Positions 479 through 2,593 of a stretch of DNA of 8,117 nt are shown in pieces. The notes beneath the pieces are model-generated. The model was not told the DNA's origin. It saw nothing but the letters and a program-made list of their open reading frames with translations, and ran no database searches. Source of the stretch: a virus (lineage: Monodnaviria > Loebvirae > Hofneiviricota > Faserviricetes > Tubulavirales). The DNA lies in the IMG/VR virus record IMGVR_UViG_2703718788_000001. One strand, 5' to 3'. Within the stretch, counting starts at the first letter, position 1. The number at the start of each line of letters is the position of its first letter. Made by a program: the position numbers and the translations under genes.

Positions 479-592
479 TCGCCCATCTCCATTGTTAACA
501 GTTTAACAAGACAACATTTTCACTTGACCCATAAAAATTATGAGTGTTAACCTGTTAACACTTTAACACCAGTGCGTTTTTTATTCGTTTTT
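479..592. promoter_or_regulatory. Divergent promoter/operator region: two copies of a 16-bp element TGTTAACA(G/C)TTTAACA (493-508, 553-568) plus an extra TGTTAAC (545-551); -35-like TTGACC at 524-529
   Basis: Repeats read directly from the sequence; each copy contains the palindrome GTTAAC; one copy abuts the regulator start and the other the gII start. Confidence 0.5.
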
Positions 593-2593
593 ATGACTGA
601 ATCAGCCATCCTCACAGCGTATAACGCCATCGACGCGGCATCCGTCGCTCTCGGTCGTCCTTGTCTGACACTGCCCGAACGTGAGCATTTTCAGGCTGAG
701 CGCGATGTTGCCACCCGCAACCTTTCCACGCTTTCCCGCCAGTATCGTGATGAGGTCGGAGTGCTCTCTTCACAGCTTGCCCTGCCACGTAACACGCAGG
801 TTGACCGTGTGATTTACGGAATTAACTGCACGGATTTATCTCTCGCTGACAGGGGTAGGGCCGCCGGACTGGTATCACAGTTTGGTTCGTTTTCCTTCAC
901 CGTGGCGCACGCTTTCTGCCGTCTGGTTTATCAGCTCGGTGTGAAAAATGCGCTGATGGCGCTTGAGTCTGCGCACCGTTTCGCTTTCTTTAATCAGGAC
1001 GGAGACCCTTATGAATTCTCGCTTTTCTGCACTGATGAGCAGCTTGCTGAGGTGGCTGATTCGGTTGTTCGTGACTGCCTTGTTTCTTGGGCCATTTATA
1101 GTGATGTACCAGAGCAGCACCTTCTCAATGTGATGGCGTATTTTCAGGCCATATCCGGCTTTGATTTCGCGCCCGTTTATGCAACTTATCATGAGCGTTA
1201 CGGCGATGAGGGGTTGCTTAAGCGTCTGACTGACCTGGCTTTTGTCACCCGTTTTCTGCGGGTTGTCCGTGACCAGCGGGTCAATGAGGTCTGTCGTATG
1301 CTCGGCATACTGAACCGCACCACGCCTTATATTTCCGACTGGCACCGCGACCTTTTTGCTGTCCGCAGTAAACGCGTGAAAAAGTATCTCCGGTCCTCCG
1401 GCGTCTTTGATGCGTTTAATGAGCTGGTCTGTACGCTGGAAGATGCGCATAACGCCTCTGTTTCGAACCCGAAAAACCGGATTGCTGAACTCTGCGTTCG
1501 TGGGAAGGCCGTCTGTGAACTGTCCGAAGATATGGGGTTGTCCGGTTACTTCATCGTGCTCACCACGCCGTCACGTTTTCACCCGACGACCAGTTTTAAG
1601 GTTGCCGGAAAATGGCATTCCCGCCCGAACAAAAAATGGTGGGAAGCAGGTTGCCCGACCATTAAGGATTCGCACGCCTGGCTGAATACCGTCTGGCGGC
1701 GGGTCTGCCGCAGACTGGATAAAGCCGGCATTCAGATACCCGGTCTGCGCACGGTTGAGCCGCATGCTGATGGTACAACGCACTGGAATTTCCTGATTTA
1801 CTGCAATCCCCATGAGAGCGCAACGGTGCTGGCCATTTTCCGTGAAGAGGCCATGCGCGATGAGCCGGATGAAAAGGGGGCGGAAGAGCACCGTATCCGT
1901 ATTGAGGCTATTGACCCTGAAAAGGGCGACGGTTTCCGTTACATCGTGAAGTACATCACCAAAATGGCGGGCGATGCCAGTGCGGACGGTATTGCCTCCC
2001 TGAATGACCGTTATTCTGCCCGTTCATTCTGTGATGCGGTCAGCCGTGCCGCCTGCTGGCAGAAAGCAACGCGTCTTCGCCTTTTCCAGTTCTTTGGCGT
2101 TCCGTCTGTCACGGCTTACCGCCAGATGCGCAGCTTCCGCGCACCGCTTGAGGCGCATCATATCAATATGCAGCAGTTCACCCCGCAGCAGGTCGCTGAA
2201 CTTGAAGCCATCCGCATGGCCTGTGATGCAGGCGATTTCCGGACCTATATCCTGCTGAACGGCGGTTTCTTCTGTTCTGAACGTCTGCTTCGTCCGTTTT
2301 ACGTTCAGCCGCAGGAAGGTGGTAAGCCCCGTATTAACCGTTACGGCGAACCCTGCGCGCCGGTGATTTCCGGTTTCATGTTTGGCCCCGTTCCGGTCAT
2401 AACCCGTTTTATGGGGTGCGTTGTCCGCCGTATGACCCCCGCAGAGAAAATCCGCGCAGATGAAATCAGAAGTGGCAACAGCTATGAATCTGTGTTCATT
2501 TCGTCGGCTTCACGACACCGCACGACGCGCTCCCGCGCGGCGGGCGGGGGCGGCGGAGCCGACCCTTGGACTTGTGACAATAACTGTCCCTGA
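593..2593 (+). CDS. Rolling-circle replication initiation protein (gII-like; two-tyrosine motif YIVKYITK). The ORF opens at GTG 572; ATG 593 is a possible alternative start
   Basis: Large ORF at the gII position; motif Y-I-V-K-Y-I-T-K at nt 1940-1963 matches the Y-x-x-K-Y-x-x-K pattern I recall for phiX174 gpA-type RCR initiators; neither candidate start has a clear Shine-Dalgarno sequence. Confidence 0.85.

Follow-up and report, generated by a model that had tools for sequence, protein, structure and literature searches.

The stretch of DNA analysed here (IMG/VR record IMGVR_UViG_2703718788_000001; 8,117 nucleotides, the whole of which is referred to as the window) is a complete filamentous-phage genome, in which a replication gene (rep) is followed in order by genes for a pV-like protein, small open reading frames (ORFs), the major coat protein (pVIII), pIII, pVI, pI/Zot and the pIV secretin. 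This report concerns the product of rep, a predicted rolling-circle initiator of the phage P2 gene A protein (gpA) family, and the DNA at the 3′ end of the gene, which very probably holds the plus-strand origin on which the initiator acts. The features concerned are listed below; residues of Rep are numbered from the ATG at 593, which gives a protein of 666 residues.

593–2593, plus strand: rep, encoding a P2 gpA-family rolling-circle initiator of 666 residues (assigned from the ORF, the PF05840 and phrog_91 matches and the starts of homologues).
593–1396, plus strand: N-terminal all-helical domain, residues 1 to ~268 (AlphaFold2 model; predicted local distance difference test score (pLDDT) >90).
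1562–1582, plus strand: motif 1 (TTPSRFH).
1757–1789, plus strand: motif 2, predicted to bind metal, with H-W-N where H-U-H is expected.
1940–1963, plus strand: motif 3 (YIVKYITK), with the predicted catalytic residues Tyr450 and Tyr454 (alignment invariance; helix 448–459).
2027–2470, plus strand: C-terminal α/β domain, residues 479–626, with a W..R.FQ.hG.P.V...R motif (AlphaFold2 model and alignment).
2477–2590, plus strand: disordered C-terminal tail, residues 629–666, the codons of which form predicted origin DNA.
2503–2563, plus strand: GC-rich imperfect hairpin of the predicted plus-strand origin, encoding a Gly run.
2564–2587, plus strand: P2-type origin nick element, CCTTGGACTTGTGACAATAACTGT (alignment with P2, position weight matrix and locus survey).

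The ORF listing of the window gives rep as 572–2593 on the plus strand, encoding 673 residues from a GTG codon, in agreement with the original prediction, made from the sequence alone, of about 670 residues. The ATG at 593 is nonetheless the likelier start compared with the GTG at 572, since P0001, the database homologue nearest to Rep (97% identical), and the coding sequence annotated by PGAP in an E. coli prophage (L089) both begin at that codon. The original prediction had also described the initiator as unusually large, which does not hold: homologues matched in the database search span 535–777 residues, so that 666 is ordinary for the P2 gene-A family (P2 A has 761 residues, orf698 of the Vibrio phage VFJ 698, and PM2 P12 634), and Rep is large solely when compared with the 410-residue gene II protein (gpII) of M13. 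The number of residues following YIVKYITK, put at roughly 200, is 209. In related E. coli genomes the gene already carries the NCBI annotation "replication endonuclease"; the cluster formed by Rep at 90% protein identity comprises 2,063 sequences, of which those that carry a name all come from E. coli; the named close homologues are all from E. coli or Shigella.

Rep matches the Pfam family PF05840 (Phage_GPA) with 165 bits, against a cutoff of 31.4 (E = 2.9e-48), residues 213–464 covering profile positions 72–316 of 321; the profile search that the original prediction had suggested as a check therefore places it in a rolling-circle initiator family. Among the PHROGs, phrog_91, 'nicking at origin of replication', is matched over residues 131–673 (2.5e-129). 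In the Pfam search, Phage_CRI (PF05144), the family of the Ff gene II protein, gave no match to Rep at E ≤ 0.1, and PF23343 (REP_ORF2-G2P) stayed below threshold (16.8 bits; cutoff 27.8); a search of NCBIfam returned no match, nor did a profile search of PDB sequences. The best match in a characterised phage is VFJ orf698, followed by PM2 P12, many P2-like A proteins (~28% identity) and CTXphi RstA. Because Rep is not of the gpII type while the remaining genes are Ff-like and in Ff order, the replication module comes from a lineage other than that of the Ff phages, as had been proposed on the strength of the Ff-like assembly module; inoviruses are known to exchange replication modules with one another and with other elements (PMC6813254).

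Conservation of the catalytic motifs was assessed in an alignment of 56 database homologues with P2 A, PM2 P12, VFJ Rep and phiX174 A. Motif 1 stands in the context VLTTPSRFH, fitting the pattern hydrophobic-T-T-P-S-R-x-H, with P326, S327 and H330 invariant and T324 nearly so in the 56 sequences. Translation of nucleotides 1940–1963 gives YIVKYITK, as originally read, and the Y, K, Y and K of this YxxKYxxK motif are invariant in all homologues that cover it, including phiX174 gpA (YVAKYVNK), P2 A, PM2 P12 and VFJ orf698; the spacing is thus the phiX174 type claimed for it and, to judge from this invariance, the motif is not a chance match. The PF05840 match and the invariant YxxKYxxK together identify Rep, at the level of sequence, as a two-tyrosine rolling-circle initiator of the phiX174/P2 type, within the HUH endonuclease family. 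Rep adds a divergent member to a family that was already known, a rolling-circle family in which both tyrosines are conserved, as the original prediction required.

At motif 2, where His-hydrophobic-His is expected, the first His is present and the second is replaced by Asn. E389, H391, D393, H397 and W398 are invariant, whilst the third position of the triad is Asn in every full-length member of an enterobacterial clade of homologues (P0001–P0032) from E. coli, Salmonella, Morganella, Providencia and Xenorhabdus, with identities of 37–97%, and His in each of the distant relatives as well as in P2, PM2 and phiX174. Variants of the H-U-Q type are active in circovirus Reps. As the remaining catalytic residues are all invariant, H-W-N looks like a selected variant and not the result of decay. 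It is, for the same reason, extremely improbable that Rep is the product of a prophage remnant that is decaying and whose H-W-N site is inactive, or that it is instead a two-tyrosine HUH transposase or relaxase of the IS91/Helitron kind. The conservation of H-W-N throughout so diverse a clade points to purifying selection; moreover, rep occupies the gene II position in a complete inovirus genome with all its morphogenesis genes intact, the ends of the window join as in a circular or tandem unit, and the proteins matched by the profiles are phage initiators.

An AlphaFold2 model of Rep built on the 56-sequence alignment (mean pLDDT 88.9; predicted template modelling score 0.86) allowed the domains to be delimited, as the original prediction had suggested it might: a helical N-terminal domain, an α/β catalytic core, a C-terminal domain and a disordered tail, the last being the only region where pLDDT falls below 50. 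The catalytic core is structurally similar to solved HUH nucleases, having the HUH fold, and microvirus initiators are weak Foldseek matches of the model (E ~1e-3). Within the core the tyrosine pair lies in helix 448–459 and, given the i/i+4 spacing, the two side chains would be expected to face the same side of the helix, so the model agrees with the earlier claim that they share one face. The first ~130 residues of Rep are clade-specific, phrog_91 coverage beginning at residue 131 and the Pfam match at residue 213; a role for the N-terminal domain in binding DNA or a host factor is conceivable. The C-terminal domain lies inside the phrog_91 coverage and outside the Pfam match. It contains three invariant residues (G502, V506 and R510) and six that are near-invariant (W489, R496, F498, Q499, P504 and R513) in the 56 sequences, and may function in helicase recruitment or in binding of the origin.

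The last 18 residues of Rep form the Gly-rich, Cys-containing tail to which the original prediction had drawn attention. A peptide within it, PW(T/S)xxNNC, recurs in distant Rep homologues, including PM2 P12, and for this reason the DNA of the rep ends was compared. The aligned elements are:

Window, nucleotides 2563–2587: CCCTTGGACTTGTGACAATAACTGT
PM2: CCCTTGGAGCACTGAAAATAACTGT
P2 gene A: GCCTCGGAGTCCTGTCAATAACTGT

The feature annotated as 'nick site at ori' in the P2 RefSeq record, at nucleotide 29892, corresponds to the G that opens the GGA of this element (P2 form CCTCG/GAGTCCTGTCAATAACTGT, the slash here and below marking the nick). The nick position was taken from this annotation, which names one base and so leaves the side of the cut ambiguous. 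By alignment, the nick in the window is predicted at or beside G2568 (CCTTG/GAC), in an element of the form CCTTG/GACTTGTGACAATAACTGT. The P2 origin is located inside gene A, and the same has been noted for P2-like vibriophages (PMC3986222). A literal search of the literature for the origin sequence found nothing relevant.

The element was surveyed in 80 loci from different bacterial species, with reference phages and extra E. coli loci in addition; a tblastn search with pI detected a pI gene within reach in only six of the 80 loci, so that six are shown to be inoviruses. A strict pattern, GGA-N4-TG-NN-AATAAC (13 fixed bases; an estimated ~0.02 chance matches in the ~1.5 Mb searched), is present in exactly one copy in each of 58 loci and every time on the rep strand. 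With a position weight matrix (PWM), a single site scoring 20–47 bits was found in about 80 of 86 loci, the maximum anywhere on the opposite strand being 6.4; among the 86, the PWM found no site in phiX174, three truncated contigs and one Xenorhabdus locus (L009). The sole match in the window is at nucleotides 2562–2589 (41.9 bits; runner-up −10.4).

The element is found once per locus, on the rep strand, in 81 of the 86; in these it lies 441–1193 nucleotides (median 537) downstream of the Tyr codons, and its relation to the reading frame varies. It is wholly within rep in 40 of these loci (33 in the 'NNC' frame and 7 in another), overlaps the rep stop in 19 (with rep in 17 of them terminating at the TAA of AATAAC) and lies beyond the stop in 22, all three frames being used across loci. 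A locus encoding a Rep 64% identical to that of the window (L005) has an identical 27-mer 8 nucleotides past the stop codon. In an eight-way DNA alignment of rep 3′ ends the element is the sole conserved island, and its third codon positions are conserved between proteins that are merely ~28% identical.

These observations make it very unlikely that the tail peptide, PWTCDNNCP, is itself functional (for example as a metal- or partner-binding Cys motif), with the DNA conserved through selection on the peptide and the origin situated in the large intergenic region. Such an arrangement would account for the recurrence of the peptide in homologues as distant as PM2 P12 and for the preponderance of the 'NNC' frame among ORF-embedded elements (33 of 40), and Ff phages do have their origin in the intergenic region; the same DNA is, however, also found in frames 0 and 2 and past the stop in 22 loci, its third codon positions are retained despite ~28% protein identity, the tail is disordered in the model, and the homologous position in P2 is the annotated origin nick. 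A peptide function for the tail was rejected on the frame and stop-codon evidence. Since the element is independent of frame, can lie past the stop and recurs once on the rep strand, we read it as a DNA signal tied to Rep, with the 'Cys-containing' peptide as its translation. The tail is thus present as originally described, but what had been taken for a protein feature appears to be hairpin and nick site read as codons; as a peptide it is probably dispensable. More generally, motif-based annotation calls for caution, since what looks like a conserved 'C-terminal peptide motif' can arise as an artefact when a DNA element is overprinted on the coding sequence.

The hairpin at 2503–2563 (ΔG ~−30 kcal/mol; z = −4.7 to −4.9) directly abuts the nick element. 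Hairpins unrelated to it in sequence stop 0–3 nucleotides ahead of the element in two E. coli loci (L005 and L006), in Salmonella (L007), Xenorhabdus (L008), Photobacterium (L013) and Vibrio (L022) loci, and in VFJ, where the stem is a perfect 27 bp. The 72 nucleotides upstream of the element have z < −2 relative to shuffled sequences in 31 of 82 loci, the downstream flank in 3 of 82. Presence of a hairpin shows no significant link with whether the element is embedded or terminal (Mann-Whitney p = 0.27).

The element itself has a further regularity. Numbering it G1 G2 A3 N4 N5 N6 N7 T8 G9, positions 4 and 7 (nucleotides 2571 and 2574 of the window) are complementary in all 81 loci, as C..G in 46 and as G..C in 35, and the Rep tree shows at least eight independent switches between the two; A3 and T8, which flank these positions, never vary and are likewise complementary to each other. 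This pattern suggests that a two-base-pair mini-hairpin, or an intrastrand contact, may form just 3′ of the predicted nick.

It is very improbable that the element is another cis-acting signal (for minus-strand priming, packaging or termination), kept from a P2-like ancestor and repurposed. A hairpin beside a conserved sequence is also typical of Ff packaging signals and minus-strand origins, and the nick is here predicted rather than mapped. Against this, the element coincides with the P2 nick site, and its orientation and its distance from the Tyr codons are kept across inovirus-, P2- and PM2-type replicons that share Rep only, which links it with Rep rather than with functions of the virion or of packaging. 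A role for the hairpin as an intrinsic terminator was rejected, as no terminator-like site was found to overlap either hairpin or element.

We therefore favour, with considerable confidence, the reading in which Rep is the initiator of an integrative E. coli filamentous phage, the plus-strand origin of which is embedded in the last ~90 nucleotides of its own gene and consists of the GC-rich hairpin followed by the nick element. Rep would bind this origin on the supercoiled replicative form and cut the plus strand at or beside G2568, and one of the two tyrosines, Tyr450 or Tyr454, would form a covalent bond with the 5′ end. The 3′-OH left free would then prime the host polymerase, whilst a host superfamily 1 (SF1) helicase (Rep helicase or UvrD) would unwind the DNA; after one round, the second tyrosine would cut the regenerated origin and the first would reseal the displaced strand into a circle. 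The scheme would be that of phiX174 and P2. Both P2 and Ff phages use the Rep helicase. For P2, non-equivalent roles of Y450 and Y454 have been described (cited in PMC3986222), and CTXphi and VGJphi use UvrD and need HU (PMC4439123).

Several points weigh against the proposal that the origin is embedded in rep. The nick site is predicted both for this phage and for the other inoviruses with the element, and the catalytic competence of the H-W-N site in Rep is putative. A strong hairpin is present in only 22 of 81 loci, and P2 has none. The 'cleavage site' in the PM2 RefSeq record lies elsewhere in gene XII, off the conserved element. In addition, the CTXphi origin is upstream of rstA (PMC4439123), and a CTXphi-related record with an RstA-like gene is without the element, although this record is partial and so is weak evidence; members of the family can thus use origins elsewhere. 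Finally, the intergenic region of the window (8041–8117 joined to 1–592) may hold further replication signals, the minus-strand origin presumably being located there.

Of the characterised systems, P2 provides the annotated nick on which the prediction rests. P2 A shares with Rep the PF05840 domain, motifs 1 and 3 and a tyrosine pair at 450/454, and P2 likewise has the nick element on the coding strand, ~500–630 nucleotides downstream of the Tyr codons. The two proteins are only ~28% identical, over ~58% of the protein, and P2 has H-W-H where Rep has H-W-N. The P2 element lies 416 nucleotides before the stop codon without a long hairpin, whereas that of the window lies 23 nucleotides before the stop and abuts a 61-nucleotide hairpin; P2 is a tailed double-stranded DNA phage, the window a filamentous single-stranded DNA phage.

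The origin layout recurs in VFJ (Vibrio fs2/VFJ; orf698/orf716). Its 698-residue Rep is 29% identical to ours over 84%, the phage is filamentous, and its origin region has the same arrangement, a hairpin followed by CCTTGGACTCGTGTCACTAACTGT, which overlaps the rep stop. It differs in its host and in having H-N-H at motif 2. This origin goes unmentioned in the VFJ paper, which draws attention to a stem-loop region of fs2 that is intergenic (PMC3731265).

The resemblance to phiX174 takes in both the motifs and the origin. The YxxKYxxK spacing of phiX174 gpA is identical, and motifs 2 and 3 align, but the A protein has no significant full-length sequence similarity to Rep. The phiX174 origin, too, is located within gene A; it reads CTTG up to the nick and has AATAAC further on (CAACTTG/ATATTAATAAC); it nonetheless scores −7.6 with the P2-family PWM, has 5 nucleotides between nick and AATAAC where the window has 10, and lies upstream of the Tyr codons, whereas the origin of the window lies downstream.

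PM2 P12 is of the same family as Rep (30% identity), and CCCTTGGAGCACTGAAAATAACTGT within gene XII encodes PWSTENNC, but PM2 is a membrane-containing double-stranded DNA virus, and its RefSeq cleavage site is elsewhere. That site (nucleotides 2253/2254 of NC_000867, corresponding to 1043/1044 of locus L002; AGCTTG/CAGAG) is in the 5′ third of gene XII, and the conserved element, at about nucleotides 3505–3530 (L002 ~2295–2320), is ~1,250 nucleotides downstream of it. The annotated cleavage site may have been predicted on the model of phiX174.

CTXphi RstA is, like Rep, the HUH initiator of an integrative filamentous phage, one that targets dif as the window probably does, and it matches the N-terminal and catalytic part of Rep with 30% identity over residues 130–463; in the CTXphi-related record the match ends at residue 463, within 13 nucleotides of the end of the record, and hence says nothing about the C-terminal domain. 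RstA is much shorter than Rep, at ~360 residues. The CTXphi plus-strand origin is a 167-bp upstream region in which the nick falls between G and T within the loop of a hairpin, and HU and UvrD are needed (PMC4439123). The gene II protein of the Ff phages (M13/f1/fd) has the same role as Rep and is likewise encoded first in a genome that has Ff gene order and a pIV secretin of its own; the two proteins nevertheless belong to different families, and the Ff origin is intergenic.

GPA-type initiators are already known from filamentous phages (fs2/VFJ and, in shortened form, CTXphi RstA), and the Rep protein itself is unsurprising, so that the insight it offers is modest. As far as we found in a limited literature, what is new is that filamentous phages conserve the same nick element, situated at the rep end or overlapping it and usually preceded by a hairpin, a finding that would explain the tail motif; the H-W-N clade and the complementarity between positions 4 and 7 within the element also appear to be new. 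The practical consequence is a precise plus-strand origin and nick prediction, at or beside G2568, for filamentous prophages in ~2% of complete E. coli genomes. It extends to further inoviruses that use P2-type initiators, VFJ/fs2 among them, for which intergenic origins have hitherto been assumed. An initiator gene that carries its own origin would also make the exchange of replication modules between unrelated viruses easy. It is tempting, if distinctly speculative, to regard Rep and its 3′-overprinted origin as a portable replicon cassette that has moved among tailed P2-like phages, the corticovirus PM2 and filamentous phages, with positions 4 and 7 marking structured DNA read by the initiator, and with an enterobacterial inovirus clade having rebuilt the metal site as H-W-N.

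Turning to the genome as a whole, nucleotides 1–12 and 8106–8117 of the window are identical (TGCGCATAATGT), and a tandem prophage junction (L089, at ~3000) is continuous across this point, from which it follows that the window is a circular or tandem unit of ~8,105 bp. A megablast search of the whole window against the phage collection gave no DNA-level match. Related DNA, with up to 97% identity, was found in 117 of 5,426 complete E. coli genomes (~2%). The window matches 18 separate places in NZ_CP027550.1 and 27 in NZ_CP070229.1; some E. coli strains thus carry many copies or fragments of related inoviruses.

Two inverted dif-like sequences span the joined ends (8104–8117 followed by 1–98) as AGTGCGCATAA-TGTGACACGCG-TTATGTTGAAA, with TGCGCACAATGACGTTATGTGTAAA on the opposite strand and a GC stem between them. 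As single-stranded DNA, this region is predicted to adopt a single long hairpin interrupted by an internal bulge (−40.2 kcal/mol; z = −10.75). The 110-nucleotide region is present in 100 of the 5,426 E. coli genomes, in 1–10 copies each, and in a few plasmids. By analogy, the hairpin looks like a folded attP of the CTXphi/YpfPhi type for XerCD integration, and the window has both marks of a XerCD/dif-type phage, an inverted dif-like pair and tandem prophages; the tandem array in L089 adjoins IS100. YpfPhi and CUS-1 have inverted XerC/XerD sites, tandem prophages, a divergent repressor and replication, morphogenesis and secretion modules (PMC4266046), and the window shares its lifestyle with these enterobacterial integrative filamentous phages, a likeness drawn from their published description.

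Immediately upstream of rep, and divergent from it, is a 60-residue ORF (296–478, minus strand; phrog_2503), beside which three copies of a 16-nucleotide palindromic repeat (TGTTAACNNTTTAACA) lie at 493–568. By analogy with RstR, the ORF and the repeats look like a small repressor with its operators on the rep promoter. In the related locus L005, the regulatory region upstream of rep is replaced by an insertion sequence, the IS110-family transposase gene at 2045–3001 ending where the rep homologue begins (shared base 3001).

Downstream, the pIII-like gene (3685–5121) encodes a Phage_Coat_A domain and contains a near-perfect tandem repeat (~4250–4640) encoding (GGSSGGSTS)n over ~130 residues, a Gly/Ser linker that far exceeds those of Ff pIII and that lifts the local GC content to 57%. 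GC content is otherwise 51–56% in rep, 50–54% in the secretin gene and 32–44% in the coat and pVI region, a contrast consistent with a mosaic genome. The closest relatives of pIV in the phage collection are inoviruses from gut metagenomes, at ~42% identity; for pI, the closest relatives are ~34% identical.

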